Shown here: positions 1,961-63,858 of the stretch, one piece after another
How the letters are laid out: every line of letters starts with the position of its first letter
Numbering within the stretch: the stretch's first letter is position 1
Assembly (NCBI GenBank): GCA_018674305.1
Contig: JABHAL010000001.1
Coordinates: forward strand, 4,635 to 68,634
Source: Candidatus Falkowbacteria bacterium
Lineage (GTDB): Bacteria > Patescibacteriota > Patescibacteriia > UBA11705 > JABHMO01
Length of the DNA: 64,000 bases
Reading direction: 5' to 3'
The notes under the pieces: generated by a model
Told to the model about the DNA's origin: nothing
The model's database searches: none
What the model saw: only the letters and a program-made list of their open reading frames with translations
Made by a program: the position numbers and the translations under genes

Positions 1961-2338
1961 TTAAGAATCTCTAGAAGAATAAGTTGTTTTAATCCATTTA
2001 TTTAACTGGTAATGGACTTGTTGTGCTCTCTCCACAAATAATTTATACTTTTCCTGAGTAATTTTTTCTCTCTTATACATTAGATCACACCAATGTTTTG
2101 ACTCCATTAATGATGCCCTTGCATTATAATAAAATTTAATTCGATCAAGATAGTGAAAACGACCATAACCTTCAACAATATTTGCAGCGTTAGAATCAAC
2201 TGAGCGAATAAATTGATCGCCAAGTATTTTTCTGTCTTGCCAACTTAAAAACTCATACAGCTGCCAACCCAAATCGCACAACTCTAGGGATATTTTATAA
2301 ACAAAAACATCTTCAATTGGAATATACTTACTTTCCAT
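1961..2338 (-). CDS. four-helix-bundle protein (23S rRNA intervening-sequence protein family, PF05635-like)
   Basis: SNAANIVEGYGRF...FYYNARASLMES matches the family signature AANIAEG.GR...A.GS..E. Confidence 0.75.
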   Translation of the reverse strand: MESKYIPIEDVFVYKISLELCDLGWQLYEFLSWQDRKILGDQFIRSVDSNAANIVEGYGRFHYLDRIKFYYNARASLMESKHWCDLMYKREKITQEKYKLFVERAQQVHYQLNKWIKTTYSSRDS

Positions 2339-9380: not shown

Positions 9381-9466
9381 AAATAATTAGTGATGAGTAA
9401 TAAGTGGTGAGTTGCCAATCAACAAAACCAACAAGAAGACCTTGGTCTACTAATAGCTGTTCTGGA

Positions 9467-10906
9467 TTAATCATAATAATTAATAATTTTCCCCATTACC
9501 ACAACACCTTCAACATCACCTTCAAAGAAAAATCTTCCACATACTTTACCTCCAACATTATGAACGTTCCTACAGTTTTTTATTTTCCTTCCTTCAATTT
9601 CAGTTATAATTTCTCCATTAATAACTGGGTAATAATCACCAGGGAGATCCTCAAATCTGGCGCTACAATTCAGTTTACCTTCAATAACCTCCACAGATTC
9701 TGTTTGCTTAATCTTATGCCCGTCAATCTCGCGGATTACTCGCCCTTCAACTATTGGATATTCTAGTACATACCCAGCCATTTGCCCAGGTCGTTTATAT
9801 GAAACTTTTGCTCTACCGTTTATAGAGTTTTCCGTATATTCAATATAATCAACATCATGTGAAACTGGATTATCATCTGGCAAATCATCAAGTTGTACTT
9901 CTTCACCACGGTTGACCACGACAACACCTTTGGATACTATTGATAGTCTTGCACAAAGTTTATTATCGATATTTTTAACATAACGACAATCAATTATTTC
10001 GTTGCCCTTAAACTCAACTATGTCCTTTCCGTCTATGACCGGAGTGTGTTTCCTTTGTTCAGTAAAACCTTTCGTGGTAATATAACCATTTAACTCACCA
10101 TTAATAAATTCTAATTCCTTAATATAATTAAGAGGGTGGCCATCCACTTGGTCAACTTCTGTCATCTTACCATTTTCCACATAAACTGGAATTCTTTTTG
10201 CTCTCCATTCTTGCGTTTTCGGATCAATATATTTATCATTCATGGAAAAACCAAAACTTCCAGTTGTTTGATCAAAATGGATATCCTCTGGATGAGCATA
10301 AACAGGGTCAGCAACTTCAAATTTATTATCTCCACATGCACCGACCTGTTCTAAAATCCTACCAGAATCATCAATCACAGCAATAGTCTTCCCAGATTCT
10401 AAATTGAAATGAGCCAGAATCTTCCCATTCTGAAAGCTCATGTCATAAACACTTTTTACTGAATATTTATTGCCGTCAGCATCAACCAACTCTCTGATAA
10501 TTTCTCCTTTGATTATCGGTAGCCAGACATCGTCTATACAAATACGGCCATACAACTTACCATTCATTTCAGCATAGCTGTTCCATTTATCCAACTTAAC
10601 ACTTAAGGCCTCTAGGTCATCTACAAAAGATTCAATCAAACCTGGATCAACCAGCTCCTTGTTAGCAAATGGTATTTTCTTAGTTTCAATAAACTCTACG
10701 ATCCGCTCTTTCTTGGCGATATAATTCCTCATCACTTGCAGTGTTTCTTTATCACCTGCCTCAGCCTTTGCTTTGAGCTCAGCAAAACCCAAACCTCCCG
10801 AAATCCTTTCCAGTTCAGACATTAATCTATCAAAATGTTGCTGCTGAAATTCGGTGAAGTTAGCTTTAAGTGCGTTTTCTTGTAATTGTTTTTCTGGATT
10901 TATCAT
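9467..10906 (-). CDS. paralog-family protein A: conserved 75-aa N-module + repeat-containing C-domain
   Basis: N-terminus MINPEKQLQENALKANFTEFQQQHFDRLMSELERISGGLGFAELKAKAEAGDKETLQVMRNYIAKKERIVEFIETKK; the C-terminus has ~35-aa internal repeats (V.G..I.EI.G.KIK). Confidence 0.6.
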   Translation of the reverse strand: MINPEKQLQENALKANFTEFQQQHFDRLMSELERISGGLGFAELKAKAEAGDKETLQVMRNYIAKKERIVEFIETKKIPFANKELVDPGLIESFVDDLEALSVKLDKWNSYAEMNGKLYGRICIDDVWLPIIKGEIIRELVDADGNKYSVKSVYDMSFQNGKILAHFNLESGKTIAVIDDSGRILEQVGACGDNKFEVADPVYAHPEDIHFDQTTGSFGFSMNDKYIDPKTQEWRAKRIPVYVENGKMTEVDQVDGHPLNYIKELEFINGELNGYITTKGFTEQRKHTPVIDGKDIVEFKGNEIIDCRYVKNIDNKLCARLSIVSKGVVVVNRGEEVQLDDLPDDNPVSHDVDYIEYTENSINGRAKVSYKRPGQMAGYVLEYPIVEGRVIREIDGHKIKQTESVEVIEGKLNCSARFEDLPGDYYPVINGEIITEIEGRKIKNCRNVHNVGGKVCGRFFFEGDVEGVVVMGKIINYYD

Positions 10907-11210
10907 ATTTAATGTGTATTATGTGTCAGATGTTACTCGTTATGTGTTACGTGTTACGTGCTACGTGCCTAGCTATTCTTTCTCAACCAACGTAAAACTC
11001 TCTTTAAATCCTGCTATTCCATTTGATAAATCAGCATATTCTTCTACGTTTTCGTAAGCTACCCTTATCTCAGCTTCCTTTGTGTTTAATTCTTTTGATC
11101 GTTTGACCAAGTTTTAGTTTTCCTTTTTCTAGTAGGAATTTGTAAAAATCTAATTAAAATTCGCCCCAAAGGGACCACTTCGTGGTAGATTCGGATTATA
11201 TTGTTCAGAT

Positions 11211-11936
11211 TTATTTCATAATTAAAGTTAAAAATCTTTTTTTTAATGATTTCGGGGTATGAATCATAGTCCTGTATAGCCCGCTTCCCAAATCAAACTC
11301 AATAGTTACATTATATCTACCAAACTTATAGTCAAAACAGATTACTTCAACAGATTCAATATCCTCAAGGCCTATTCCTGCTGGCAAATCCTTAATTGAC
11401 GGTGAGGAAGCACGAAATTCCAATTTTTGGCCAATGTAAATTCCCTCATATTTATTTAAGTCCAATTCGCCAGTCGCTTTATCAATAATTCTTGCAACAT
11501 GCTCATTTGTGGTAGAAACCACCTTACCATTCTTTAATTTAACATCTAAATACAAATATGATTCACCAGTTTCAGTAGAAGTATCAGACCTTTCTCCAAC
11601 GTACTCTCCCTGCTTGGCTCCATCACCAAAAAAGTCCACTGCCACTAAGTCACCTACTCTAAGTTCTTTATCCCGTAATGGAATAGTATCATAGTCGATT
11701 TCAATCTCTTTCGTTTCAATAAACTCAACTATCTGTTCTTTCTTAGCAACATAATCACGCAGCACTTGAAGTGCATCTTTATCACCGGCTTCTGCTTTTA
11801 CTTTCAGCTCAGTAAAACCCAAGCCACCTGAAATTTGTTCTAACTCAGACATTAACCTATCAAAATGCTCCTGCTGAACTTCAGTGAAGTTAACTTTTAA
11901 TGCCCTTTCTTGTAACTGTTGTTCTGGGTTAATCAT
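11211..11936 (-). CDS. paralog-family protein B
   Basis: same N-module (>65% identical), different C-domain; its C-region is distantly similar to D. Confidence 0.6.
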   Translation of the reverse strand: MINPEQQLQERALKVNFTEVQQEHFDRLMSELEQISGGLGFTELKVKAEAGDKDALQVLRDYVAKKEQIVEFIETKEIEIDYDTIPLRDKELRVGDLVAVDFFGDGAKQGEYVGERSDTSTETGESYLYLDVKLKNGKVVSTTNEHVARIIDKATGELDLNKYEGIYIGQKLEFRASSPSIKDLPAGIGLEDIESVEVICFDYKFGRYNVTIEFDLGSGLYRTMIHTPKSLKKRFLTLIMK

Positions 11937-12616
11937 ACATCCTCATATAATAGTTTAAACTCGGGTATTGATAAACAAGGGAACCTTTTTTCTCCCTCAT
12001 GATCACGATACAAATACTTCACATTAACTTGATGACTGTTATCAGTCCAACCAAACTCCAAAACCGTTACTTCCTTGGAGCCTAACATTTGCTTATCTTT
12101 ACATTTATATTTTTTCCCTCTTTCTAAACCACTCATAGCATTTCGAGCAATCAATTCTAAACTTGTACCACCTTCAGCTTGAGTTGTTGTGCCAACTAAC
12201 TTGATAACATCACTTTGTAAAACCCTCTCATTAGAACCATACTGGCGCCTTACTAAAATTATATTACCACTTCTGGCTCTTTCAATCCTAAGCACCTCTG
12301 CAACAATTGGGAACGAAGAATGATAACGTACTACCACTTGATCCCCAACATGAATTTCTTCATCATATTTTTCAAAATGCTCAGGGTCCTTTTTCTTTTC
12401 AATAAACTCCACAATCTGCTCTTTCTTCGCAATGTAATCTCGAAGCACCTGCAACGCTTCTTTGTCACCGGTTTCAGCTTTTTCTTTAAGCTCATCAAAA
12501 CCCAAGCCACCTGAAACCACTTCCAATTCAGACATTAACCTATCAAAATGCTCTTGCTGAACTTCGGTAAAGCTAGCTTTGAGTGCGTTTTCAGTTAGTT
12601 GTTCTATACTTTTCAT
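11933..12616 (-). CDS. paralog-family protein C
   Basis: same N-module, unrelated C-domain; 4-nt overlap with B. Confidence 0.6.
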   Translation of the reverse strand: MKSIEQLTENALKASFTEVQQEHFDRLMSELEVVSGGLGFDELKEKAETGDKEALQVLRDYIAKKEQIVEFIEKKKDPEHFEKYDEEIHVGDQVVVRYHSSFPIVAEVLRIERARSGNIILVRRQYGSNERVLQSDVIKLVGTTTQAEGGTSLELIARNAMSGLERGKKYKCKDKQMLGSKEVTVLEFGWTDNSHQVNVKYLYRDHEGEKRFPCLSIPEFKLLYEDV

Positions 12617-12721
12617 GTTTGATATTCTTTATTAAATATTGGATACTGTGTATTAGATATTTTACTCGTTATTGTTCTCGTCCCGCATAGCGGGATCCCG
12701 TTTGCGGGAGATTTAACATAA

Positions 12722-13453
12722 TTAAACTTTCTCATATAATTTTTCTAAATCTTTTGGTGAATATAAAACAGAGGATGCTGAGCTACCATCTTTATACAAA
12801 ATATCCAAACTTATTTTTAATCCATTAAATACATGCCAAAACCCCACAACTAAAATTGAATCAATTTGCTCAATATTAAGTGGTATACCCTGAGCTTCCG
12901 GCAACGGACTTTTTATTTTTAACTTTTGACCCGTAAAAAACCCTCCGTATTTATTCAAATCCAACTTACCACTTTGTTCATTAACAATCTCTGCCACTAT
13001 ATGAGGCCTAACCACGTGGCGCTTATCCCCAAAATCAACAGAATAATATACGGTGCCATCGTCATATCGACTTATTGAAGCAATTACTCCTTTTGATCCA
13101 GCGGGGATACCGGGATTATAATACCGTAAAACAATCACCTCGTCACCACGCTGTAACTCTTTATTTCTAAATGGTATATCATTATAAGAAACAGGTGTTT
13201 CTTTAGTTTCAATAAAAACCACAATTTGCTCTTTTTTGACGATGTAATCCCTCATCACTTGAAGTGCTTCTTTGTCACCAGCCTCAGCCTTCTCTTTTAA
13301 TTCAGCGAAGCCTAAGCCACCTGAGATCACTTCTAATTCCGACATCAGTTTATCAAAATGCGCCTGCTGAACTTCGGTGAAGCTAGCGTGGAGTGCGTTT
13401 TGTTGTAGTTGCTCTAAGTTTTTCATAGAAAAACGTTCTTGTTTAAGGGTCAA
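12722..13453 (-). CDS. paralog-family protein D
   Basis: same N-module after a 10-aa leader; C-domain shares GxLDLNKYxGxxxGQKL with B. Confidence 0.6.
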   Translation of the reverse strand: MTLKQERFSMKNLEQLQQNALHASFTEVQQAHFDKLMSELEVISGGLGFAELKEKAEAGDKEALQVMRDYIVKKEQIVVFIETKETPVSYNDIPFRNKELQRGDEVIVLRYYNPGIPAGSKGVIASISRYDDGTVYYSVDFGDKRHVVRPHIVAEIVNEQSGKLDLNKYGGFFTGQKLKIKSPLPEAQGIPLNIEQIDSILVVGFWHVFNGLKISLDILYKDGSSASSVLYSPKDLEKLYEKV

Positions 13454-31019: not shown

Positions 31020-31056
31020 AACAAAAAACCGCTCAAACAAGAGCGGTTCTTTTTAT
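31020..31056. terminator. bidirectional terminator (aaccgctc/gagcggtt stem)
   Basis: perfect 8-bp stem flanked by A6 and T5. Confidence 0.6.
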
Positions 31057-31091
31057 ATATTGTTACGTGATATGTGTTATATGCTACGTGA

Positions 31092-31691
31092 TTAACGCTT
31101 CTTCCATTGTGGTGCTTTTCGAGCTCGTTTCAATCCTGGTTTCTTTCTTTCCTTCTTTCTTGGATCTCGAGTTAAATAACCTGCTTTTTTTAATGGCTTT
31201 CTAAAATTAGCATTTAATAATAATAGTGCTCTGGCAATACCATGACGAACAGCTTCAGCTTGAGCAGTAGAACCACCGCCTTTGACTTTGGCTGAAACAT
31301 CTAATTTATCCTGTTGGCCAACAATCTTTAATGGAGATACAACCTTTTCTGCCAAACTTGGAGTTGCACAATATTCTTTAACTGTTTTTTCATTGATTAT
31401 AATCTTTCCATCTCCCTTTTTGAAAACTCTAACCTGAGCAATAGCAGTTTTACGTTTACCCACACCATACAGATATTCTGCCTTTTTCTTGCCTGCAACC
31501 ATTTCACTATCTTCGACGTCTTTCACAATCGGTGTGGATTCAACAGTATCAACCTTTTTATCTGAAACTGGCTTTTTGACAGCTGTTTTTTCTACCTTAA
31601 CCTTCTTAACAGTGTCTTTGTCAACTTTAGGCTTTGTTACTTTTGCAACAGTCTTTTTTGTAGCAGTTGTTGTTTTCTTTTTTTCTACCAT
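31092..31691 (-). CDS. rpsI: 30S ribosomal protein S9 with ~70-aa Lys/Thr/Val-rich N-terminal extension
   Basis: C-terminal GGG.TAQAEA.RHGIARAL...PRKKERKK.G...ARKA.Q..KR is canonical S9. Confidence 0.9.
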   Translation of the reverse strand: MVEKKKTTTATKKTVAKVTKPKVDKDTVKKVKVEKTAVKKPVSDKKVDTVESTPIVKDVEDSEMVAGKKKAEYLYGVGKRKTAIAQVRVFKKGDGKIIINEKTVKEYCATPSLAEKVVSPLKIVGQQDKLDVSAKVKGGGSTAQAEAVRHGIARALLLLNANFRKPLKKAGYLTRDPRKKERKKPGLKRARKAPQWKKR

Positions 31692-42958: not shown

Positions 42959-45900
42959 TTATTTGATCTGCACACTATCAGCCTTGGAATAATTAATTAT
43001 TGATGGACTATTACTAGATTGAATAGTTACCGGCTCAGCTCGGTATTCACCAAGAGCAGCTACTCGAGCATAGTACTTAAAGTAGTTTAGACCTTTACAC
43101 GGTTGCCAATTCTTATTCATACCAAACTTTATCTTCTGATCATTAATTTCGTAAGGATAACGTAGACCACACCAACTCCTAATACCAATTGAGTAAGGTC
43201 TAGTTACGCCTTTCAAACCACTTGGTAAAATATCGGTTATTTGATAATAACCATCGACCGAATCAACAGAAATCTGAGGATATAAACGAACCTCAATTAT
43301 ATCTCCAGCTGAAAAATGATTAACCTGCTGACCATCCACATAATATTGACGGTCAACTGACACATACTGACTAAATGCCTGATCAGTTACTTTTTCTTGA
43401 TAAATACTGGTTACGCCAATATCACCTTGTACGTCCTCAATTTTTAGCCTAGCCAACTGTTCAGGTAATAAGTCTAGCTTGAAGTTTTGACCATTTTCTA
43501 ATTCTTTTTTGTATTTTTTCCCATCAACGTTAACAGTGAAACTAACTGGCCCAACATTCAAGGTTGGCAGACGCTTTGTCAAATAATTAACTTCTTCTAA
43601 ATTGATCAAGACATCTTTAGTCCGGTGATCTGCCAGATAAGACCAAAGCCCTTTATGATATGGGTCATTCAGACCAGCTGCCAACACAGCAGCTAAACTT
43701 GTTGCCTGCAAAACATCATCTTGATCTTTGCCAGTTTTAATTCGGACATAAGAATCTAATTCTTCAGCATTTTCTTTCATTACCTCTAGATAAAGTTTAC
43801 GACCAAGTTCACGATCACCGATCTCAAATGCTGCCAATGCAATATATAATTTTTCTTTAACAGTAACATCTTCAAGTGTCGCAATATTTTGAATTGGCAA
43901 AAGCACAGGCTCTCCCAATCCAGCTAATCCGTAAAGGGAAATAATTACTTCCTCCTGACTAGACTCTTCTGAATTTAGTTTTGTGTAAAAATACTTTGAC
44001 AAAGAAACTTTATCAAATTCAGCCCCTGCAATTGAAGCAACTTTGGCACTCAATTCAAAGTCACTTGAACTATAAGGCAATAAAGTCAAACCACCTTTAC
44101 TCTCCTGATAAGTAGCTGAATTAAAGTTATCTACTTTGTATTCCTTACTGAAATACTGCTTAAATAACTTTTGAGCGGCAACTTTGGAAACTCTCTGGTC
44201 CAACCGATCTCCGTACTGCCAACTTAATCGAAGTAGTCGATGATAAAGCTGTCCAATACTCTCGTCCATAAAAACTAGAGTTGTTCTGTCCGTTGCCGAA
44301 CCAGAAATTTCCACGCCTGACTCATACTTATAATAATCCTGCACTTCTTTGGTCAACAAACTTTCAGCCACAGCAAATTTATTTATCAAGGTATCTTCAA
44401 GTTCACCCTTTTTGGCAGTTGAACTAATTTCATACTGTCCAACGCCAACTTCCCCTAGCGCTACGCTTAAAGCATCAAAAGCTTCCGTTTGTTTAACTAT
44501 TTTATTCAAGTCTAATGCTTCAGAACTAATTTCATAATCAATCACATCACCTGAAGTTAAAGTTTCACCATATGTTCGTAACTGCATAACAGGAGAATCC
44601 CCTTCCAAAAACTTATCTGGTAAAGTTGAGTTTATAAACAAAGGAAGACTAACCGGCAAGGCTGTTACCTCTCTACCAGCGTAAATATCCTTATTAATTG
44701 CCTGCGTAGTAATTCGCCATGAGGTTATATTATCAGGTAATTCAAATCTAACAGTTGCGCGACCAAATAAATCAGTCTTGGCCATTTTGAATAAAGCAGT
44801 ATCCTGAAAGTCTTCTCGCGCTCCACCTTTGTCATTGTGAACAAAGAAACCTTCTGCGAAATATGTGTGATATTTTTCAATATGTAAATTATAAACATCA
44901 ACCATTTGACCGAATCTCTCAATGCTCTCAATTTTAACTCTTTGACCAAATTCATCTAATAAATAATCACCTACTTTAGACTGACCAATCATCTGCCAAC
45001 CATTATTAACAAATACTCTATGCTCAGGAGTAACCCGCAACTTCCCATTAATTAGGTAATAGCCATAAACTGTATGCTCAAAAGTGTTTAACACTTTAGC
45101 TCTAACTAATTTCTTCGATAGCGGATCACTAAAAGTTAAGATCTCATCACCAATCTGAATTTCTTCAATATTCTTGTATGAGCCGTCAGCCATCTTGATC
45201 TGGGTACCAGCCACAAAACAACCGCCCATACCACTCGCATCAGGCGCCAAAGACAATGCTTCATGGGAAGCATAAGTCGTTTTTAGTCCAGCACTTTCCA
45301 ACTGATATACACTGGCCAAAATATCTGCCCAATCTTCGCTCAGCTGAAAAAAGGCTTCATCAACCAAACTTAAATTCAAAGTTGCTGCAACCGGATTTCC
45401 TTTTTGATTAGTAACTTTAACTTCTAATTCCACATCCTCACCTGGTGCATACTCCTCCTTATTTGAAGTAACTTCAACATTTAATTCTTTTTCTGAATAA
45501 TCATATCTGATTGATGTTCCACTGCTAGAACTATACCAATTGTTACTTCCGCTCTGATGATATTTCTCACCATCAAACCAAACTCCACTAACATAAATAT
45601 TTGGAATATAGCTATCCTTGAAGTTAAATTCGTAAACTGGTTCAGTTGACAATGAATAGTCAACTAGACCACGTCGCATCTTGTAGTACAAATAATCTTT
45701 CTTTTCCTGAGAAGATAAAATATCATTATTTTTTGTGAATTCCAAAATCACACTCTCGTCTACCTTAAACTTAACTTTATCACCCTTAATTGCCAACTTA
45801 TAATATTCGTAATTATTGGAACTATATGGATTGCCATAATATGAAGAGCCATACATTTGAGTGGATAAATAATTATTCCCTTGCTCATCAATGGCAATCA

Positions 45901-48505
45901 AGCGAATTTGGTAATAACTCTTTTCTTCAGTTTCAAATTCATAAGTAAACTCACCTGCGGCATCAGTTAAACCTGACATCTCATGAATAACTTTTTCTTC
46001 TTTTTCGTACTTGTATTTTTTATTAACGACCTTATTAATATAATCATACTCTTCACCAATTTCATTCTTGTGCCAAATTATTTGGATAATTTTACCTTTA
46101 ATAGCTGTATTTGGCGCCACTTCTTCCTCATCAACAACACTCCAAAGACTCCCTTTGGCCCTTTTCTCTAAATCGTATTTTTTCACTGTGGCCTTTATTT
46201 TTGCTGTTAATGAATTCTTTTCTTTTGGCGCAACTTCCATCTTGGTATAAACACGAGAGTTATAAGTATAGACATAAGCTGTTTGATTAATCTGTGCCAC
46301 TTCCGGTTGCGTTGAATTCAAATTTAAGTATACTGTTTGCATGTTGGAACAATATGTTTTTTCTAAAGTACACTTAGTCGCGACTGATGGCACCTCGATA
46401 CGCGCCTCACCAGCTAAGTCAACCTCGACTTCTCCTTTCACAGACTTATTACTGGAACTATAATCTAAAACTAAATCTGACACGGGAGTACCTTCAAAAA
46501 ATTCCGCATTAACATCAAAAACTGCAGTTTCTCCGGACCAAATCACTTTATTCTCTGGCTCAACCTTGATTTGATATGCTGGTTTATCGTAAGTCTGAAT
46601 ATTAATGTACTTAGTAGACAAAATCTCATCACCAAGTCTAACGTCCACATAATAATAACCCGGGACTAACTTTTCAAGCTTCAACTCACCAGAATAAACA
46701 AAATCAGGAGACACTTCAAGTTCTTGTTCTGCCAAACTTATTTCTTCATTATAATAATTATAATAACGAGCATAACTATTTTGCCGCAAAGCAACTGTAA
46801 CTTTTTCATCAATCCCCTTTGAATCCTTGGGTTTTACAAATCCCCAAAATTTAATAGTATCGTCAGGTTGAAATAAATTTCGATCAGTGTAAAAATATTT
46901 CCAATACTCTTTTTGCTCTTGTTTAGAAAAACTAACAGGAACAATAGTTACATCACCATCTTTTCGAACCCTCAAGTAGTCAGTCTCATATCGATCTTCC
47001 TCGCTAAAAACAAAAGCTGTGTCGGTATTAAATTTAGTAATTCCTTGACCGTCAGTACTTTTAGTAATTCCACTGGAAATTATTTTAACCTCAGCATTTT
47101 GAACTGACCCTTTATCCACAATACTATTAACCCAAACTAGGCTTTCACTGGTAGACACCATAGAAAATACTGCTAATTCACTAACTGAGAAAAAAGTCTG
47201 TCTTTTCACGTCCTGAACAGTTGATTCAATGACATAAAACCCCGGTTCATATACTTCTGGAAAAACTATAAACTTATTGTAATTAACTTCTCGAACTTCC
47301 AATTCATAGTCAGTTATATGACTAAGGGTATTAGTGTCAACCAAAGAAGACTCGCGATTATAGCTTGCCCAAGCAGGATAATCATATCTACTTTTCAGCG
47401 CCTCTAAATAAGCTGTATCATTGGCCAAGGAATAAACATTTAACTTAATTTTACTATCAAGTAAATTTCGTTCGTAAACTTTGAAGGCTGGCTCTCTAGT
47501 TGGAGAAAATTCTAGATAATCACCGATAATCATGAAGTAAGGTTTATTATTTGAACCTCGCTTATAATTTACCAATGGACTGGTCTCAAATTGCAGGGTG
47601 TAATCTTTTACCATTTTTTCATCTGACTCCGACAAAGGTAACTCCTTGTCTACAATTATTCTGTAAATAGTACCAGGCATTAAATTCTTGGGTACAAAAA
47701 CCCAAGTTCTTTTATGCTTTTCGAAACTTCCATCAACCTTTGGTTCAATTGTAAAATGTTTAGCAAACTCTTCCACATTGTCATGACTGAAAGTAAATTC
47801 AATTCCTGTATCAAGTGGTACCCCAGAACTTTTATCACGAGGCAAAGAGCCGATAATTTTGAATTGGTCTTTAGTTTGAAACGCCCAAGAATAATCTTGT
47901 TCAAATGTTAAACCGCTTTCTGCCATAATAGAGGCCGAAATTACAACACTATAAACAACTCGTGGTTGCAATGGTTCACTTGGAATAATCTTAAACTCAT
48001 GATCATTTACTTTTTTAAAACTAAACTCTAATTCAGGTTTGATCTGAATATTCTCTTCCAATAATTCTGAATCTACGACTTCTTTACTTTTAATAACAAA
48101 AGCAGTGTCCGACTCAACGCCAATACTATCACTAACTGTCGCCTCAACTGTAAAATTATCCTGCGCGTATGCTGGACTAATTATAAGTCGAGAAAATTCA
48201 CTGAAAGGTGAATCTTGGCCAGGCCAGTAATGACTAGCTGTTACAAGTAAAGCAAAAATCACCAGAACAGCTAGAACTGGAGATAAGCGCCTGACAGTAA
48301 AAAGTGAAGAAAATCCTTTTACAAAATTTAGCATATGTTTTTTTTGCTGCCGTTTTTCTAGGATCTTCGATTTTAATGCATAACGAAAATCATCAGAAGC
48401 AGGCTCATTTTTAAATTGTGCTTTTTTTAGCATACTCTCTGCTTCCTGTAACGGATGATTTTCACTTTTATTACGTTTTTTATTGTTATTGTTGTAATTT
48501 TGCAT
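42959..48505 (-). CDS. giant (1848 aa) surface protein: anti-sigma-like cytoplasmic N-terminus, TM, MG/Ig-like repeats, embedded Hint domain, alpha-2-macroglobulin-like TED region (no CGEQ)
   Basis: start 3 nt after the ECF sigma stop; TM LSPVLAVLVIFALLVTA at ~aa 75-95; LSLVDEAFFQL and ITSWRITTQAIN resemble A2M-family motifs; C...HN Hint domain. Confidence 0.6.
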   Translation of the reverse strand: MQNYNNNNKKRNKSENHPLQEAESMLKKAQFKNEPASDDFRYALKSKILEKRQQKKHMLNFVKGFSSLFTVRRLSPVLAVLVIFALLVTASHYWPGQDSPFSEFSRLIISPAYAQDNFTVEATVSDSIGVESDTAFVIKSKEVVDSELLEENIQIKPELEFSFKKVNDHEFKIIPSEPLQPRVVYSVVISASIMAESGLTFEQDYSWAFQTKDQFKIIGSLPRDKSSGVPLDTGIEFTFSHDNVEEFAKHFTIEPKVDGSFEKHKRTWVFVPKNLMPGTIYRIIVDKELPLSESDEKMVKDYTLQFETSPLVNYKRGSNNKPYFMIIGDYLEFSPTREPAFKVYERNLLDSKIKLNVYSLANDTAYLEALKSRYDYPAWASYNRESSLVDTNTLSHITDYELEVREVNYNKFIVFPEVYEPGFYVIESTVQDVKRQTFFSVSELAVFSMVSTSESLVWVNSIVDKGSVQNAEVKIISSGITKSTDGQGITKFNTDTAFVFSEEDRYETDYLRVRKDGDVTIVPVSFSKQEQKEYWKYFYTDRNLFQPDDTIKFWGFVKPKDSKGIDEKVTVALRQNSYARYYNYYNEEISLAEQELEVSPDFVYSGELKLEKLVPGYYYVDVRLGDEILSTKYINIQTYDKPAYQIKVEPENKVIWSGETAVFDVNAEFFEGTPVSDLVLDYSSSNKSVKGEVEVDLAGEARIEVPSVATKCTLEKTYCSNMQTVYLNLNSTQPEVAQINQTAYVYTYNSRVYTKMEVAPKEKNSLTAKIKATVKKYDLEKRAKGSLWSVVDEEEVAPNTAIKGKIIQIIWHKNEIGEEYDYINKVVNKKYKYEKEEKVIHEMSGLTDAAGEFTYEFETEEKSYYQIRLIAIDEQGNNYLSTQMYGSSYYGNPYSSNNYEYYKLAIKGDKVKFKVDESVILEFTKNNDILSSQEKKDYLYYKMRRGLVDYSLSTEPVYEFNFKDSYIPNIYVSGVWFDGEKYHQSGSNNWYSSSSGTSIRYDYSEKELNVEVTSNKEEYAPGEDVELEVKVTNQKGNPVAATLNLSLVDEAFFQLSEDWADILASVYQLESAGLKTTYASHEALSLAPDASGMGGCFVAGTQIKMADGSYKNIEEIQIGDEILTFSDPLSKKLVRAKVLNTFEHTVYGYYLINGKLRVTPEHRVFVNNGWQMIGQSKVGDYLLDEFGQRVKIESIERFGQMVDVYNLHIEKYHTYFAEGFFVHNDKGGAREDFQDTALFKMAKTDLFGRATVRFELPDNITSWRITTQAINKDIYAGREVTALPVSLPLFINSTLPDKFLEGDSPVMQLRTYGETLTSGDVIDYEISSEALDLNKIVKQTEAFDALSVALGEVGVGQYEISSTAKKGELEDTLINKFAVAESLLTKEVQDYYKYESGVEISGSATDRTTLVFMDESIGQLYHRLLRLSWQYGDRLDQRVSKVAAQKLFKQYFSKEYKVDNFNSATYQESKGGLTLLPYSSSDFELSAKVASIAGAEFDKVSLSKYFYTKLNSEESSQEEVIISLYGLAGLGEPVLLPIQNIATLEDVTVKEKLYIALAAFEIGDRELGRKLYLEVMKENAEELDSYVRIKTGKDQDDVLQATSLAAVLAAGLNDPYHKGLWSYLADHRTKDVLINLEEVNYLTKRLPTLNVGPVSFTVNVDGKKYKKELENGQNFKLDLLPEQLARLKIEDVQGDIGVTSIYQEKVTDQAFSQYVSVDRQYYVDGQQVNHFSAGDIIEVRLYPQISVDSVDGYYQITDILPSGLKGVTRPYSIGIRSWCGLRYPYEINDQKIKFGMNKNWQPCKGLNYFKYYARVAALGEYRAEPVTIQSSNSPSIINYSKADSVQIK
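44834..45220 (-). other. Hint / bacterial intein-like (BIL) domain, 129 aa, embedded in the giant protein
   Basis: GMGG|CFVAGTQIKMADG...HIEKYHTYFAEGFFVHN|DKGG: N-terminal Cys, block-A-like start, C-terminal His-Asn; the +1 residue is Asp, so a BIL-type cleavage module rather than a splicing intein; coordinates +/-1 nt. Confidence 0.6.
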
Positions 48506-57497: not shown

Positions 57498-57971
57498 TTA
57501 TTTCTTTATAATCCCTTTGTCTGTCAAAAAGTAACAACCAGGTTCTTTGAATTGGCCAGCCCCAGTTTCCAGATAAAAGTAAACTGCAAATTCATCATCA
57601 TTAATTCCTCTAATAGTATAATCACAAGGCTTAGTACAATCACTTTGACAACTTGCCACACCTAGCGGGTCTTTCATGTTTGCCACGGTTGTTAAATACT
57701 CTCCTAAATTTCCACCTACACACTGATGAACAAAAGCTCCACCATAATCCTGGGCCTCATTTGGACAACCCAAATCTGCTCCAAATCCGCCATATTCATT
57801 ATTAACAAGTTGCAAGGAAGTCTGAAGAGCATCCATATCACTAAGACGTTTGGTATCACGAGCTTTTTCTCTAATATCACCAAGAGAAACAACTGCCAAA
57901 GATGAGAGTAACCCAATAATAGCAATAACGACTAATAGTTCAATCAAAGTAAACCCTTTAATTCTTTTCAT
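57498..57971 (-). CDS. type IV pilin-like protein
   Basis: [27 protein letters not shown]; paralog of 57983..58438. Confidence 0.75.
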   Translation of the reverse strand: MKRIKGFTLIELLVVIAIIGLLSSLAVVSLGDIREKARDTKRLSDMDALQTSLQLVNNEYGGFGADLGCPNEAQDYGGAFVHQCVGGNLGEYLTTVANMKDPLGVASCQSDCTKPCDYTIRGINDDEFAVYFYLETGAGQFKEPGCYFLTDKGIIKK

Positions 57972-57982
57972 AAATTTATTTA

Positions 57983-58438
57983 TTAGTTTTTAAATACACC
58001 TTTTTCTGTTTGAATATAACATCCTGGTTCATCATACTGTCCAGCTCCATTTTCTAAATAGAATAGCACTGCCCAATCATAATCATCGACTTCAATAGGT
58101 GTGTAATCACACGCTTTATTACAAGTCGCAACAGTACAAACAGTATCACCCAAAGGATCTTTTAAAGTTGCAACTCCTGGTAAAAATTCCTCTAAAGTTC
58201 CGCCCGTACAAGTATGCATAGCATCCCCTGGATCACAATCAGCAACACCTTCAAACCCATATTCTTCTTGAACTAAGGCCATGGCTGTTTGTACAGCAGA
58301 TAAATCACTAAGACGTTTAGTATCACGAGCTTTTTCTCTAATGTTACCAAGAGAAACAACTGCTAGCGATGATAATAACCCAATAATGGCTATTACCACC
58401 AAAAGTTCAATTAAAGTAAAACCTTTGACTCTTTTCAT
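57983..58438 (-). CDS. type IV pilin-like protein
   Basis: [27 protein letters not shown]; N-terminal 45 aa nearly identical to its neighbour, C-terminus diverged. Confidence 0.75.
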
Positions 58439-58496
58439 ACTTTTTTTAAAGTTATTTATAATTTAGGTACTTTTGTTTAACTACTTATATATATTA

Positions 58497-59702
58497 TCAC
58501 ATATTTGTTGAAATTTCATACATTGGGAGTACTATCGCTGTAATCATTAAACCAACTGCGACGCCCAAGACTACCATTATAAATGGCTCCATCAGAGACA
58601 TCATATTTGAAATGAGATTATTAACTTCACGAGTATAAAAATCGCTGACTTTTTCTAGGACATCTTCAATCTTTCCGGTAGCCTCTCCTGTATCCAACAT
58701 TTGAGGTAACATTTTAGGGACTAATTTATTGTTTTCAAAAATTTCGCCAAAACCTCCGCCACTCTCTATATTTTCTCGTGTCTTATCAATCAAATCAGAA
58801 TAAACAACATTACCAACCATAGCAGAACTAATTTCCAGACCACTGACAACATCAACCCCACCAAGCATTAAAGTTCGCAGTCCAAGAGAAAATCGAATAA
58901 CAGAAATATAATTAAACAACTTACCAAAGATTGGCAATCGCAACTTTATATTGTCAATATGTTTTCGACCAACAACACTTTTAGAATAAAAATATACAAG
59001 TATTATAATAACAATAATTATCAAAAACACCAACCACCAAAAATTAACCATAAAATCACTTGTCCCTTTCAAAATTCTTGTCGCCAAAGGAAGTTGGGCG
59101 CCAGTTTGGGACAACATATCCGTCAATTTAGGAATAACAAAGACCATCATTAAAACGCCAATGGCAAACAAACTACCAACCACAAAGGCTGGATAAATTA
59201 ATGCGCCCTTGATTTTACTACGTAAATCATAATCCTTTTCTAATTGATCGGCTAAATATAAAAGCACTTCTTGTAAACGACCTGACACTTCTCCAGACTT
59301 GATAATATTAACAAAAAAATTATCAAAAACTTTTGGATGATTAGCCAATGCTTCAGAAAACTTTACTCCGCCTTCCACCTCAGTTGCCACTTCAACAATT
59401 GATTTTTTTAGTTTTTTATTCTTGGTTTGATTAACAACATCTTTCAGCGATTCAACCACAGGCACGCCAGCAGAAATTAAAATTGACAATTGTCGTGAGA
59501 AAATTACTAAATCTTTTGCCTTAACACCACCCAACATTAATTCCAAATTTGCTAAACCAGTTTTTTTTTCTTCAACAAATAAAACCATGAAGCCTCTTTC
59601 TTCCAAAATGTCCACAGCCAAACTTTCAGACTCAGCTTCAACTAATCCTTCAAATATATCTTCTTCTTGTTTTTTTCGTGCTCGATAACTGAATATTGGC
59701 AT
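58497..59702 (-). CDS. pilC: type IV pilus platform protein PilC (GspF family)
   Basis: duplicated GspF domains, 3 TM helices, 401 aa. Confidence 0.85.
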   Translation of the reverse strand: MPIFSYRARKKQEEDIFEGLVEAESESLAVDILEERGFMVLFVEEKKTGLANLELMLGGVKAKDLVIFSRQLSILISAGVPVVESLKDVVNQTKNKKLKKSIVEVATEVEGGVKFSEALANHPKVFDNFFVNIIKSGEVSGRLQEVLLYLADQLEKDYDLRSKIKGALIYPAFVVGSLFAIGVLMMVFVIPKLTDMLSQTGAQLPLATRILKGTSDFMVNFWWLVFLIIIVIIILVYFYSKSVVGRKHIDNIKLRLPIFGKLFNYISVIRFSLGLRTLMLGGVDVVSGLEISSAMVGNVVYSDLIDKTRENIESGGGFGEIFENNKLVPKMLPQMLDTGEATGKIEDVLEKVSDFYTREVNNLISNMMSLMEPFIMVVLGVAVGLMITAIVLPMYEISTNM

Positions 59703-59819
59703 AAACTATCACATATCATAGATCACATACCACGTATCAATCACCAAGTCATGTGCTACGTGTTATGTGCTACATATTATGTGTTACGTGTTATGTGCTA
59801 CGTGTTATGTGCTACGTGT
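59703..59819. repeat. tandem degenerate repeats (unit ~TGYTACGTGTTATG, 14-16 nt) filling the pilB-pilC spacer
   Basis: tcatgtgctacgtgttatgtgctacatattatgtgttacgtgttatgtgctacgtgttatgtgctacgtgttt. Confidence 0.7.
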
Positions 59820-61580
59820 TTACTCTTGCTCTTCAACTTCTTTGCTAACCCTAAAGACCTCCTCCAAAGCTGTACTGCCTTGTAGCGCTTTTATAATTCC
59901 GTCTTGTAATAAACTGACTACCCCAATCTCAGCCAACTCCTTCAGGACTTCGGCTTTTGGAAAATTATTAGCAATTAGAGAGCGCATTTTTTCATTAATA
60001 GGTAAAACCTCTGAAAAAACAACTCTTCCACTGTAACCAGAATTCTTACACGCTGGACAACCCTTACCCTTATATCCAGACAATTCTCCTTCTAAATTAA
60101 TATCTTTTGGCAATAGACGACGAGGTAATTTAGCCAACTCTTTGCGTATTTTATTTGCCGTTTCTTCAGGTAAAGGTGTTTTTTCCTTGCATTTAGAACA
60201 GATTCGCCGACCCAGTCTCTGAGCAATTACTAAATTTAAAGTTGAGGCTAATAAAAATGGTTCTACTTTCATATCAACCAAACGAGGAACTGAACCAATA
60301 GAATCATTAGTATGTAAAGTCGAAAACAATAAATGACCTGTCAGAGCAGCGTGTACTGACATTTCCGCAGTTTCACTATCTCTAATTTCACCAACCATGA
60401 TAATATCGGGGTCTTGCCTCATCAAAGAACGTAAACCAGACGCAAAAGTAAATTTCACTTCAGGACGAACTTGCGCTTGATTAATTCCTGGAACATTATA
60501 CTCAATAGGATCTTCTAACGTTGTAATATTCACTCCTTCTTTGTTCAAAATACTTAAAAGTGAAAACAAAGTAGTTGATTTACCAGATCCAGTCGGCCCA
60601 GTAACTAAAACCATGCCAAAAGTTTGCTTTAGTGCTTTGTGAATTATTTCAATTATATTATCACTAAAGCCAAGCTGTTCTAGCGACAGGGCCTTGCTAG
60701 AAACATCCAATAACCTCATTGTCACTTTTTCTTTGCCTGACAAAGGCATAACTGAAACACGTAAATCAAATTCATGTTTACCAGATTTATACTTAAATCG
60801 CCCATCTTGAGGAACACGAGTTTCGTCAATTTTCAAATTAGACAACACTTTGATACGAGAAATAATTGAATCATGAACATGTGCAGGAACAGTTAAAACT
60901 GTAGTTAATATTCCATCAATGCGATAGCGAACACGGGAAGATTTTTCAAACGGCTCAATATGTATATCTGAAGCCCTACTTTCTACAGCATGCTTAACAA
61001 TCATTGATACAATCTGAGCAACTGGGGCTCTTTTAATGACTTCCTCAATATTATCAGTTGACAGATCATCTTCGTCTTTTTTTTCTTCGCGCTCTTTTTC
61101 AACCTGATCAACTGCGCTGGCCACATCTTCTCCAAACACATTATAATTTTGAAACTTCTCCTGCCAGGCATGAAGAGAGCAAACATAGTATTCCACAGTA
61201 TAACCTTTACTGGAGGCCCAAAAATCCAAGGCTTCTCGAGCATCATAATCTTCTGGTTTAGCTAAAGCTAATTTTAATTTTGTTCCATGTTTAGAAAAAC
61301 ATAAGACGAAATGTTGCTCTGCTAAATTACGAGGTAAAACATCATTCACTTCCGCTGTAAGTTTTTCAAGTATTAAATTAACATATGGGTGGTTATAAAA
61401 CTCTGCCTCTGCCTGAGCTAAAACTTCTGCATCCACAAACCCACCCTTAACTAAAATTTCGCGCAAATCTTTGTCATTTGCGCTTTTTAGAACATTCTCA
61501 ACTTCCTGTTCCTGAATTTCCCTAATTGCCTTTTTCCCAACCAGGAAGTGTAATAAATTTTTTTGGTTTTCCCTTAACAT
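59820..61580 (-). CDS. pilB: type IV pilus assembly ATPase PilB (GspE family)
   Basis: Walker A GPTGSGKSTT, Asp box, His box, C-terminal CxxC...CxxC zinc motif. Confidence 0.9.
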   Translation of the reverse strand: MLRENQKNLLHFLVGKKAIREIQEQEVENVLKSANDKDLREILVKGGFVDAEVLAQAEAEFYNHPYVNLILEKLTAEVNDVLPRNLAEQHFVLCFSKHGTKLKLALAKPEDYDAREALDFWASSKGYTVEYYVCSLHAWQEKFQNYNVFGEDVASAVDQVEKEREEKKDEDDLSTDNIEEVIKRAPVAQIVSMIVKHAVESRASDIHIEPFEKSSRVRYRIDGILTTVLTVPAHVHDSIISRIKVLSNLKIDETRVPQDGRFKYKSGKHEFDLRVSVMPLSGKEKVTMRLLDVSSKALSLEQLGFSDNIIEIIHKALKQTFGMVLVTGPTGSGKSTTLFSLLSILNKEGVNITTLEDPIEYNVPGINQAQVRPEVKFTFASGLRSLMRQDPDIIMVGEIRDSETAEMSVHAALTGHLLFSTLHTNDSIGSVPRLVDMKVEPFLLASTLNLVIAQRLGRRICSKCKEKTPLPEETANKIRKELAKLPRRLLPKDINLEGELSGYKGKGCPACKNSGYSGRVVFSEVLPINEKMRSLIANNFPKAEVLKELAEIGVVSLLQDGIIKALQGSTALEEVFRVSKEVEEQE

Positions 61581-61616
61581 TAGAAAATTAAATTGTATTC
61601 AAAACTATTCTTATGA

Positions 61617-62027
61617 TTATTCAACAACAGGTACTTCAGGCATTAAATCTTCTGTCTCTACTAACTCTGTTATAGTCCCTTCTTCCAATATCTCGATCAC
61701 TATCTCAGAAGTTGGATCAAAAGGATTACTGATTTCTTTTTCAATTGAATCAATTTGCAATGGCCAATCACCATTTTTTTGTAAATTGATAAACTCCTCG
61801 TTGGTCAATAATTCTTCCTTGATTGCAGTAAACTCCTTTTCAATCTTACTGCTATTGCTACCAATACTAATCCCATCATTTGATATATCAATTTGCTGTT
61901 CTGCTGGTTGAAAATACAAAAATTCAGCCAACCCTAAAAATATTATAAGTAATAATATTATTATAGTTAAAATAATAACTGAAGGAATCTTACTCTTCTT
62001 CTTGTGTAATTGCATAACCTTCGCCAA
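61617..62027 (-). CDS. bitopic membrane protein, putative pilus assembly component (PilO/PilP-like position)
   Basis: single TM then acidic ectodomain; in the pil operon. Confidence 0.35.
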   Translation of the reverse strand: MAKVMQLHKKKSKIPSVIILTIIILLLIIFLGLAEFLYFQPAEQQIDISNDGISIGSNSSKIEKEFTAIKEELLTNEEFINLQKNGDWPLQIDSIEKEISNPFDPTSEIVIEILEEGTITELVETEDLMPEVPVVE

Positions 62028-62739
62028 AATAATATGTATTCATGGAAATATTGTAGGTATTGCCTTCTGGTGAATAAACAATTGACCTAATATCCAGCAA
62101 TCTCAAATTATTTTCTACATCATTTAAAAAGTTTTTTAGGGTAAAATAATCACCTCCAGACAAGCTAAGGTTAATAACCAATTTATGCAACTCAACTTTG
62201 TCCTTCTTCCTTTTTTCTTCGCCAGTTGATTGTTCAGCCGCAATATCAACCGTCGACAAAAACAAATTATGTTTATAAGCTAAAGCTTCTAATTGCACAA
62301 AAACACTAGGCAAATCTCTTTCGTCCGGCAAAACCTGCAAGATCTTTTTTGATGAATCTTCTAAATCCTCATAACTAACCTTGATAGATTTTAATTGGTT
62401 TAATTCCTGTTCCTTGATATCCAAGGTTTGCTGTTTTTTTTCAATTAGACCTTGCCACTCTACGATATTAACTTTATATAACCAATACCCACCATAAGAC
62501 ACCGCCAATAATACAATAATCACAACCAATAAAAAAATTAGACGATATAACCGAATAAAACTTTCTGCAAAATTAATAAATCCATTTTTCTTTTTTACAC
62601 CATCAGAAATTAAAGTTGGCCCTGCCTTGCGCTTGACCATGGAGCCCGGAACTTGTCTCTTCAGTTTAATATTATCCGGTTGATTGGACTTAACCTTGCC
62701 GGATTTATTAGGATTGTTCTGCTTTTTTTGTTCAAACAT
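61990..62739 (-). CDS. bitopic membrane protein, PilN-like (TM + coiled coil)
   Basis: TM LLVVIIVLLAVSYGGYWLY followed by a coiled coil, PilN-like architecture. Confidence 0.4.
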   Translation of the reverse strand: MFEQKKQNNPNKSGKVKSNQPDNIKLKRQVPGSMVKRKAGPTLISDGVKKKNGFINFAESFIRLYRLIFLLVVIIVLLAVSYGGYWLYKVNIVEWQGLIEKKQQTLDIKEQELNQLKSIKVSYEDLEDSSKKILQVLPDERDLPSVFVQLEALAYKHNLFLSTVDIAAEQSTGEEKRKKDKVELHKLVINLSLSGGDYFTLKNFLNDVENNLRLLDIRSIVYSPEGNTYNISMNTYYFGEGYAITQEEE

Positions 62740-62742
62740 AAA

Positions 62743-63858
62743 TTATTTCAATAATGCATCTTGTTTTAGCTTGAGTGTAATACTAAAGTCAATTGGGGAA
62801 ACCGGCGCTACTTCCACTGCTTCCACCGCCTCAATTTCATCACTTAATTCCAGGTCTAAAAAAGTTAAATCTTCCACGACTTCTTCAGGTGCTTGACTAG
62901 CAGAATTAATTTCTACAGAATCGACAAAATCTGATTCCTTGAACGTCAAAAGCTGTTCTGCCACATTGTTATAAGTTTTGGCTTTAGCACTTAGCACTAT
63001 ATTACCATTACTTTGAGCAACAAAATTTGTATAATATACATCTTTAACAGTATGGTGTTCCAATTTATCCAAAAACTGCGTCCAATAAATATGATTATTC
63101 AGGAGAATCTGCAAAACCTGGGCTCTATCCTTTAGCGAAATTGCTTGTATTTTTTCTAGACTATGAGAATTAATTTCTGCTTCAGTTTGATTTATAGTCT
63201 GACCTAATTCAGCGTACTGTTTTAATAAATTTGTTTTCTGAATTTTAATAAAAATATAACCACCAACAAAAATCATTGAGAATATAAAAACGACAACCAA
63301 TAAATTTCGTACTCTTAACCAAAACTGTCTACGTACCAACAATACATAATCCTCTTCCATTAAATTCACTTCAGGTTGTGGTCCTTGCTCTTGCCAATTT
63401 TTTTTGCCAAACTGATCTGCTAGCGGAGGAGGACTTACAACTTCTTCAAGCTGATCAGCAGTTTCCCGAATAATCTTTTTTCCTTTTCCATTCAACCGAT
63501 TAAGTATCTTTGGAATATGCATTAAAAAAGTTGATTCGTCTCGTTTTACTGGCGCAGGTGGTGGAGCAAGAGGTGCAACTGGCTTCTCAATCTTTGGTGG
63601 GGCGGGTGGTTTTAAGGGCTGCGGAGATTTTTTTTTAACCATTCGAAAAATTCCTTTTTTTTGTTCGGGCTTAGCGTTTTCTAGACCAATCTCAATACCA
63701 ACCTCCTGTTTTTTAACAGGTTGTTTATCACCCAAGGCATTTGTCTTTTCTTCTGGCAAATGCATCTTGAACTTAGGATCACCCATGGCTTGTTTAACTT
63801 TTTCCTTTTCCTGATCTTCTTTGTCCCGCAGGTCTTCTGGAAGTAAACTGATAGACAT
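62743..63858 (-). CDS. Pro-rich cytoplasmic N-terminus + TM + periplasmic domain protein, putative pilus assembly component
   Basis: first gene of the pil operon; PAPPKIEKPVAPLAPPPAP linker; TM LLVVVFIFSMIFVGGYIFI. Confidence 0.35.
   Translation of the reverse strand: MSISLLPEDLRDKEDQEKEKVKQAMGDPKFKMHLPEEKTNALGDKQPVKKQEVGIEIGLENAKPEQKKGIFRMVKKKSPQPLKPPAPPKIEKPVAPLAPPPAPVKRDESTFLMHIPKILNRLNGKGKKIIRETADQLEEVVSPPPLADQFGKKNWQEQGPQPEVNLMEEDYVLLVRRQFWLRVRNLLVVVFIFSMIFVGGYIFIKIQKTNLLKQYAELGQTINQTEAEINSHSLEKIQAISLKDRAQVLQILLNNHIYWTQFLDKLEHHTVKDVYYTNFVAQSNGNIVLSAKAKTYNNVAEQLLTFKESDFVDSVEINSASQAPEEVVEDLTFLDLELSDEIEAVEAVEVAPVSPIDFSITLKLKQDALLK

Follow-up and report, generated by a model that had tools for sequence, protein, structure and literature searches.

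A tandem gene family of Candidatus Falkowbacteria with one conserved N-terminal domain and variable C-terminal domains: a candidate docking handle

Genomes in the Candidate Phyla Radiation (CPR) of bacteria are very small, and most of the genes peculiar to its lineages still lack an explanation. In the 64,000-nucleotide stretch of Candidatus Falkowbacteria DNA analyzed here (positions 4,635 to 68,634 of contig JABHAL010000001.1, which is 208 kb in all; hereafter the window), four consecutive minus-strand genes begin with closely similar modules of about 75 residues and continue into variable C-terminal parts, which raises the question of what the shared beginning does. A first reading made from the letters alone (the original prediction) saw in it the segment SELExISGG, likened it to the double-glycine leaders that C39-peptidase ABC exporters cleave and, more loosely, to the extended leaders of the Nif11 and NHLP type, and described the rest of each protein as unrelated cargo. 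We arrive at a different answer, to which we assign a probability of roughly 0.55: as judged from sequence, the shared N-terminal domain would be a common docking or assembly handle on interchangeable target-binding subunits, not a cleavable export leader.

The four open reading frames (ORFs), at 9467–10906, 11211–11936, 11933–12616 and 12722–13453, all share the N-terminal module. Their parts, and one further feature that bears on the history of the array, are the following.

12722–13426, minus strand: paralog 1, 234 amino acids (aa) from an ATG at 13426; module plus tandem Tudor-like C-terminal part (public gene call MBT5338557; homology to paralog 3)
13199–13426, minus strand: N-terminal module of paralog 1, codons 1–76 (copy of repeat D1 at 13203–13430)
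11933–12616, minus strand: paralog 2, 227 aa; module plus divergent Tudor-like C-terminal part
12389–12616, minus strand: N-terminal module of paralog 2
11211–11936, minus strand: paralog 3, 241 aa; module plus tandem Tudor/SH3-like barrels
11706–11936, minus strand: N-terminal module of paralog 3, with helices predicted at residues 4–14, 19–36, 41–49 and 53–75
11823–11828, minus strand: codons G37–G38 of paralog 3 (GGT GGC), the 'double glycine', in a predicted turn between helix 2 and helix 3
11232–11669, minus strand: predicted tandem Tudor/SH3-like beta-barrel region of paralog 3, about residues 90–235
9467–10906, minus strand: paralog 4, 479 aa; module, linker helix and predicted beta-propeller
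10676–10906, minus strand: N-terminal module of paralog 4
9470–10609, minus strand: predicted beta-propeller region of paralog 4, about residues 100–479, with repeats of ~40 aa
9458–9474, minus strand: relic start left by a deleted fifth member, identical over 17 nt to the start of paralog 3

The tandem array is therefore real as first described, with one correction: the 243 aa given for paralog 1 came from a mechanical TTG start at 13453, and alignment of the paralogs together with the public gene calls places the true start at the ATG at 13426. The stop of paralog 2 overlaps the start of paralog 3 by 4 nt (ATGA). All four proteins, each named 'hypothetical protein [Candidatus Falkowbacteria bacterium]' at NCBI, are acidic (isoelectric point 4.9–5.6), and none has a signal peptide or a membrane span (no 19-residue segment has a mean hydropathy above 1.4). 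The possibility that they are fragments of one pseudogenized gene, named at the outset as a way in which the array might be explained away, can be rejected, because none of the four is disrupted, every one begins at a start codon of its own and the identical proteins are found again on at least 23–27 contigs; the collection indexes the 241-aa protein in 51 blocks.

The near-identity of the N-terminal module, including SELExISGG, was described correctly. Over the first ~75–76 residues the four paralogs share 76–80% amino acid identity and 48 invariant columns, and the underlying DNA forms a four-copy direct repeat of 228 nt that is 75–80% identical. Nucleotide conservation begins at the ATG and the DNA upstream of the four genes is unrelated, so the conservation of the module acts at the level of the protein. 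Comparison of nonsynonymous and synonymous divergence (dN and dS) gave a dN/dS of ~0.07–0.14 for the module among the four paralogs (dN about 0.11–0.14; proportion of synonymous differences, pS, 0.51–0.77; dS from 0.86 to saturated), which indicates old duplicates under purifying selection on the protein. Among 62 distinct modules about 60% of the columns are at least 85% conserved, and the strongly conserved columns include many polar or charged ones (E9, Q20, Q21, E30, E32, K64, K65 and E66). So many near-invariant polar and charged positions in a helical domain of 75 residues suggest that most of its surface is functionally constrained, as would be the case for docking or oligomerization. 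AlphaFold2 predicts the same four helices for the module in two independent models, of the 241-aa and the 479-aa proteins; the model of the 241-aa protein has a mean predicted local distance difference test score (pLDDT) of 79 and continues into beta-barrels after the helices.

How does the double glycine fit into such a domain? The string E31-L32-x-x-I35-x-G37-G38 is an exact ELxxIxGG in all four window proteins, the residues ahead of it are predicted to be helical, as they are in bound leaders, and a distant subfamily with leucine-rich-repeat (LRR)-like ends retains 'IVGG'. The motif that was seen is thus present, but the role read into it fails in several independent ways. To our knowledge, the glycine at −2 is essentially invariant in double-glycine leaders; here, the first glycine of the pair is G in 46 of 62 distinct modules (74%), D in 12 (19%) and Q or N in the rest, so that it is replaced in 16 of the 62 (26%). 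The second glycine is 95% conserved, and I34, S35, G39 and F40 (profile numbering) are 92–94% conserved. Two distant subfamilies have no double glycine at the equivalent place, where they read 'EEHFGQIKL' and 'SLYASYDV'. Conservation does not stop at a cleavage point: residues 39–76 are as conserved as residues 1–38, so that it runs 38 residues past the pair, and divergence sets in from about residue 77. In both AlphaFold2 models the two glycines form the turn between helices 2 and 3.

Searches for leader and exporter families agree. The bacteriocin, Nif11 and NHLP leader models of Pfam and NCBIfam gave no match at E≤1, which leaves the likeness to Nif11- or NHLP-type extended leaders unsupported as well. 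No ABC transporter or C39 domain was found in the 30 window ORFs that were scanned with Pfam (including all seven of at least 580 aa), and no C39-peptidase ABC transporter in the precomputed Pfam annotation of related loci. Cleavage at SELExISGG is supported by none of the tests made. Given the variable glycine, the silent leader models, the lack of an exporter among the window ORFs scanned and the modeled turn, we take the exact match to ELxxIxGG to be coincidental, produced where a helix ends in a glycine-rich turn. Annotation of these genes as double-glycine or bacteriocin-like precursors was tempting but wrong, and that annotation is now removed. The resemblance to class II bacteriocin, Nif11 and NHLP leaders amounts to an ELxxIxGG after a helical segment near the N terminus; the differences are a variable −2 glycine, a double glycine that lies inside a folded domain, conservation well beyond it and large folded cargo.

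The module also stands outside the families that we know, as the original prediction had suspected. Scans of the four proteins against Pfam, NCBIfam, PHROGs and PADLOC gave no match above noise, only weak ones below the cut-off (Pan3_PK with E about 0.006, TraM and NifZ), and PDB sequences gave no significant match to the module profile, the best being the helical lid of the PAN AAA+ ATPase (E = 0.38). A likeness to UBA domains or to the N-domain of EF-Ts, a lead prompted by 'SGGLGF...AGD', was rejected: there was no UBA match in Pfam or PDB, and hhalign gave a probability of 0.2% between the module profile and three EF-Ts N-domain sequences that were entered by hand. A literature search found no description of the family. 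The module thus appears to be an undescribed family of four-helix N-terminal domains and a candidate for inclusion in domain databases.

If the module is a handle, what does it carry? The C-terminal parts had been said to diverge completely, which is wrong for three of the four. Those of the 241- and 234-aa proteins are homologous over their whole 160 residues (BLASTP E = 4 × 10^−20, 28% identity), and by hhalign the profile built from them matches that of a 12-member cluster to which the 227-aa protein belongs (probability 94.5%, E = 8 × 10^−8). The three short paralogs therefore share a common, divergent tandem Tudor/SH3-like domain, and only the 479-aa protein differs, with its predicted beta-propeller. 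Structure was modeled for two of the window C-domains, the tandem Tudor-like one of the 241-aa protein and the propeller of the 479-aa protein; these models bear out the helical module that had been expected but place the double glycine in an inter-helix turn. The Gly/Pro-rich domain ascribed to one paralog does not exist. The repeats ascribed to another do, in the 479-aa protein, although they are about 40 aa long rather than ~35; they have the form P[IV][IV]xGxxIxEIxGxxI...V.NV.GKL.

Across the family, the C-terminal parts fall into many clusters by BLAST. Most short members (200–270 aa) have the Tudor-like layout, several long relatives are WD40 propellers (Pfam E down to 3 × 10^−32) and many of the domains are orphans. 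Pfam found no enzyme or toxin domain (toxin, nuclease, NTPase or protease) among 48 family members. Where they can be identified, the C-terminal domains thus appear, from profile matches and models, to be binding scaffolds. The gene plan that emerges is that of a soluble, acidic protein with a predicted four-helix N-domain of ~75 residues, a short linker and a variable, probably beta-rich interaction domain.

Our reading of this plan is that the N-domain would attach variable binding domains to a single partner common to all, or join the paralogs in hetero-oligomers, while the variable C-terminal domains would supply target specificity. With a shared handle and interchangeable target-binding domains, the arrays would encode a repertoire of specificity subunits. 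The shared partner may be an intracellular machine, with the family acting as adaptors or receptors in the manner of F-box proteins, or an unconventional export or display system of the kind that serves PE/PPE or LXG proteins. This agrees with the original prediction as to general architecture (a conserved targeting or docking module with variable cargo) and departs from its flavor of effectors or toxins: the cargo, where it can be identified, is Tudor-like, propeller, WD40 and LRR-like, and no immunity genes are interleaved. Several points weigh against docking. The case for it comes from architecture and from the pattern of conservation; the pLDDT of the module is only 62–87; the many orphan C-terminal domains could differ in function; the LRR assignment is a reading by eye together with a Pfam LRR match below the cut-off; no partner was identified; and, apart from the family itself, no gene recurs consistently as a neighbor from one locus to the next.

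The family is narrow. When 1.84 billion representative proteins were scanned in full by HMMER, the module profile had 56 matches, 47 of them at E ≤ 10^−10 and each with the module at residues 1–79, followed by a score cliff beyond which there were a few weaker N-terminal matches and some spurious repetitive proteins. The module is thus found in about 50 representatives among 1.84 × 10^9 proteins, and only at residues 1–79 of paralogs. No relatives appeared in 185,579 GTDB species genomes (two scans) or in IMG/VR. One scan of JGI metagenomes also found none, a weak negative because the same scan missed JGI contigs that were found by exact look-up. Word-indexed protein searches, with the module profile and with a profile widened by distant members, returned short fragments only. 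The scans point to a multigene family that is specific to the Candidatus Falkowbacteria lineage and does not extend beyond a narrow CPR clade. A prophage or defense-island origin received no support from IMG/VR, PHROGs or PADLOC.

Its distant members keep the plan. One subfamily, marked by '...AEYEEHFGQIKLDEL...', has the same architecture with propeller and Tudor-like ends. The subfamily that retains 'IVGG', marked by '...ELEAIVGGVSIEEL...', comprises three or four tandem genes with LRR-like repeats of 23 residues at locus L012 (623–3332), where one gene appears to be in two parts, of 87 aa with the module and of 206 aa with the repeats. The only outside homolog of the 479-aa propeller is P0063, a 492-aa protein of a distant genome (L013, 7312–8790), whose N-region is positionally equivalent to the module and has 'YAS' in place of 'SGG', without a double glycine. 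Its gene immediately precedes mraZ-rsmH, a placement relative to mraZ that it shares with the window array. As a separate observation, in P0009, on a 2.9-kb ENA contig, the first 47 module residues continue in frame into the C-terminal end of a cytidylate kinase; this is a rearrangement scar or an assembly chimera.

Within this clade the arrays are anything but static. The same genome holds a second array just beyond the left edge of the window (L008, 12943–19780), with five members of 421, 230, 352, 585 and 469 aa after a penicillin-binding protein (PBP) gene, so that at least nine family genes lie within about 33 kb around the genes of the cell-division and cell-wall (dcw) cluster. Strain L011 matches L008 at 99.7% identity over 7.2 kb, as far as a point 27 nt beyond the stop codon of the 352-aa member, and after that breakpoint carries entirely different members, of 268 and 261 aa, then a Mur ligase gene and a member of 377 aa. 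L001, from a genus-level relative whose housekeeping proteins are mostly 84–94% identical, has nine members at the locus in a changed order, and its orthologous members have 75–82% DNA identity against 85–86% for flanking genes. At 10001–10687 of L001 stands a pseudogene in two pieces, a module fragment of 56 aa and the remaining 137 aa; its ortholog in L008 and L011 is the 230-aa member, which is intact there. Six members occur on L005, a more distant contig of Falkowbacteria, in another neighborhood that includes tyrS and an AAA-like gene.

The window bears a mark of the same process. At 9458–9474 (minus strand), overlapping the stop of the 479-aa gene, the start of the 241-aa gene recurs exactly over 17 nt (ATGATTAAYCCAGAACA), with homology lost after 6 codons; the string has two matches, against 0 expected in 100 shuffles. 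It is what remains of a deleted fifth family member. A relic start of the same kind follows the 421-aa member in L008. Array content turns over rapidly between strains.

Such turnover, and the general design, have to be weighed against other readings. The rival that survives best, although we consider it unlikely, takes the module for a signal or handle that marks the proteins specifically for export independent of Sec or for display on the surface, and that is recognized as PE/PPE and LXG proteins are by type VII secretion or as the N-terminal packaging domains of contractile-injection cargo are, so that the variable domains would act outside, for instance as adhesins with which an episymbiont holds on to its host cell. 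Dependence on contact with a host, as assumed for CPR bacteria, would suit this reading. Like the PE/PPE and LXG/WXG100 substrates, the family combines a conserved helical N-domain with variable C-domains in strain-variable arrays of a kind known from monoderm bacteria; it has no Sec signal, although binding domains outside the cell often have the folds seen here, namely propellers, LRR-like repeats and SH3-like barrels. The window even contains a type IV pilus cluster (57498–63858, minus strand), its only secretion-type machinery, with a PilB-type ATPase, PilC (T2SSF), PilO, PilN and paralogous pilin-sized genes; however, the class III signal peptide that type IV pilus substrates need is absent from the family. 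No type VII (EssC/EccC), type I, type VI or injection-system genes were found in the 64-kb window or in related loci. The module has neither a WxG motif (its turn reads SGGLGF) nor YxxxD/E (the sequence is Y62-I-A-K-K-E), Pfam matches none of PE, PPE, LXG and WXG100, and the cargo consists of apparent binding scaffolds rather than toxins or PGRS repeats.

We regard as very unlikely the explanation that the 5′ module is a homology block for variation by recombination, whether by swapping or conversion of C-terminal cassettes, as in pilE/pilS or vls-type systems, or by retroelement diversification. Differences in array content between strains that are 99.7% identical, the relic start and the pseudogene, and the simple 7-nt repeat tracts upstream of some members all speak for it. 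Against it, every copy is a complete gene with its own start, there being no promoterless silent cassettes, and the one mapped strain breakpoint, between L011 and L008, is in an intergenic spacer and not in the module. The ~75–80% nucleotide identity of the modules, which had made domain shuffling seem conceivable, is close to the floor imposed by amino acid conservation; since their synonymous sites are near saturation, it is no sign of recent recombination, and we reject recent gene conversion between them. Of the shuffling originally proposed, flux at the level of whole cassettes therefore stands, whereas a drive by module DNA identity does not. As for a diversity-generating retroelement, the window has no long direct repeats beyond the four modules, a pilin pair and short tracts, and no template/variable repeat pair, and there is no reverse transcriptase in the 30 ORFs scanned.

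More remote still is a polymorphic toxin, immunity or anti-phage defense family in which the module would serve for trafficking or as an adaptor. Conflict systems typically form tandem arrays that vary between strains, and paralog 3 has a weak Pfam match to a TOTE conflict-system S1/CSD-like domain (E = 0.096), but PADLOC gave no match, the 48 members examined for toxin and enzyme domains had none, and the window genes abut or overlap (paralogs 2 and 3 by 4 nt), with no small immunity ORF following each of them. The effector-associated and Death-like adaptor domains of bacterial conflict systems, reportedly described by Kaur, Burroughs, Iyer and Aravind in 2020, are likewise small, helical, N-terminal adaptors on several differently equipped proteins encoded in tandem; they pair an effector with a core NTPase that bears the same domain, whereas the module here occurs only on the paralogs and never on a core NTPase, enzymatic effectors are lacking and Pfam and PADLOC show no match. 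Least probable of all is the double-glycine or extended Nif11/NHLP-like leader, cleaved after GG and exported by a C39-peptidase ABC transporter, which would, besides the evidence given above, have to carry folded domains of 150–400 residues.

Docking thus remains our preferred reading, and its closest counterparts are architectural. The family belongs to none of the known families tested; the likeness is one of kind, a small conserved N-terminal handle on variable interaction domains in an expanded, fast-turning family. The F-box receptors of eukaryotes (and SOCS-box and LisH proteins) similarly place a small helical N-terminal domain before WD40 or other propellers, LRR-like or other binding domains, form large families with fast turnover and conserve the handle far more than the rest. 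They differ in that the module matches neither the F-box nor any other Pfam family in sequence, that it has about 75 residues and four helices as opposed to about 45 residues and three helices and that the host is a bacterium of reduced genome with no known Skp1- or cullin-like partner. Dockerins of cellulosome subunits also use a conserved module of ~70 residues to dock varied subunits on a common scaffold, but they have duplicated, calcium-binding loop-helix motifs, are usually C-terminal, sit on secreted enzymes and have no likeness to the module in sequence or motif.

The place of the arrays adds a hint. The window array lies upstream of tsaB-mraZ-rsmH-ftsL, and the second array follows the PBP gene and, in L001 and L011, precedes a Mur ligase gene. 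Two arrays in or beside the dcw cluster, together with the position of P0063 upstream of mraZ, hint at a link to the cell envelope or to division. The neighbors vary from locus to locus, namely an L,D-transpeptidase gene and tsaB in the window, PBP and Mur ligase genes in L001, L008 and L011, and tyrS and the AAA-like gene in L005.

With paralog number, strain turnover, a constrained handle and apparent recognition scaffolds, the family is a plausible determinant of partner, host or phage recognition. We tentatively entertain, as a possibility that we hold with less confidence than docking itself, that Falkowbacteria and a few related CPR lineages have their own system of one handle and many receptors, in which the four-helix domain would dock a fast-evolving, strain-specific repertoire of propeller, tandem Tudor-like and LRR-like binding proteins on a single machine, in functional analogy to F-box receptors or PE/PPE export. 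If this were true, the system might set which host or phage molecules a cell recognizes and might link that recognition to the adjoining division and cell-wall apparatus. Phylogenetically narrow as it is, the family offers a clear and testable lead into CPR biology, and the 75-residue module is a concrete bait for finding the interacting machine.

Smaller features accompany the array. A 45-aa ORF at 10973–11110 (minus strand) lies inside the 304-nt gap between the 241- and 479-aa genes, and a gap in the NCBI protein accessions (MBT5338554) suggests that it is annotated; its 'LSNGIAGF' is faintly like the 'ISGGLGF' of the module, whose hidden Markov model does not detect it. A scan of the array for promoters and terminators gave nothing above shuffled expectation. 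GC-rich hairpins stand at 11163–11195 and 12681–12710 (minus strand), 3′ of the 241- and 234-aa genes, and the motif 'CCACGAAGTGG' is seen again after family genes in L001 and L008; these may stop transcription or represent a small repeated element. A degenerate 7-nt unit (GTTACGT/GTTATGT; CACGTAA on the minus strand) is repeated in intergenic tracts at 10901–10967, 31045–31097 and 59738–59832, of which one immediately precedes the 479-aa gene and another lies upstream of the pilC-like gene. Family genes in L001, L005 and L008 have similar tracts ahead of them, and six copies of TAATACT stand upstream of the 230-aa member in L008; the tracts could be promoter or leader elements or slippage-prone spacers.

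In the 479-aa protein, codon 420 (9647–9649, minus strand) encodes a residue in a loop between propeller blades ('FEDLPGDYY'), and that residue is D, V or Y in the otherwise almost identical strain variants P0062, P0068 and P0069. Elsewhere in the window, the pair of pilin-sized genes shares a 227-nt repeat (57790–58016 and 58257–58483). A gene at 42959–48505 (minus strand) encodes an 1848-aa alpha-2-macroglobulin-like protein (Big_5, bMG3, A2M_BRD and A2M domains) that is interrupted at about residues 1090–1224 by a Hint, pretoxin-HINT or intein-like segment. Finally, the 125-aa gene at 1961–2338 (minus strand) belongs to the '23S rRNA intervening sequence protein' family (PF05635), a domain that precomputed Pfam annotation records as fused to alanine racemase in L008 (20663 onward) and L010.

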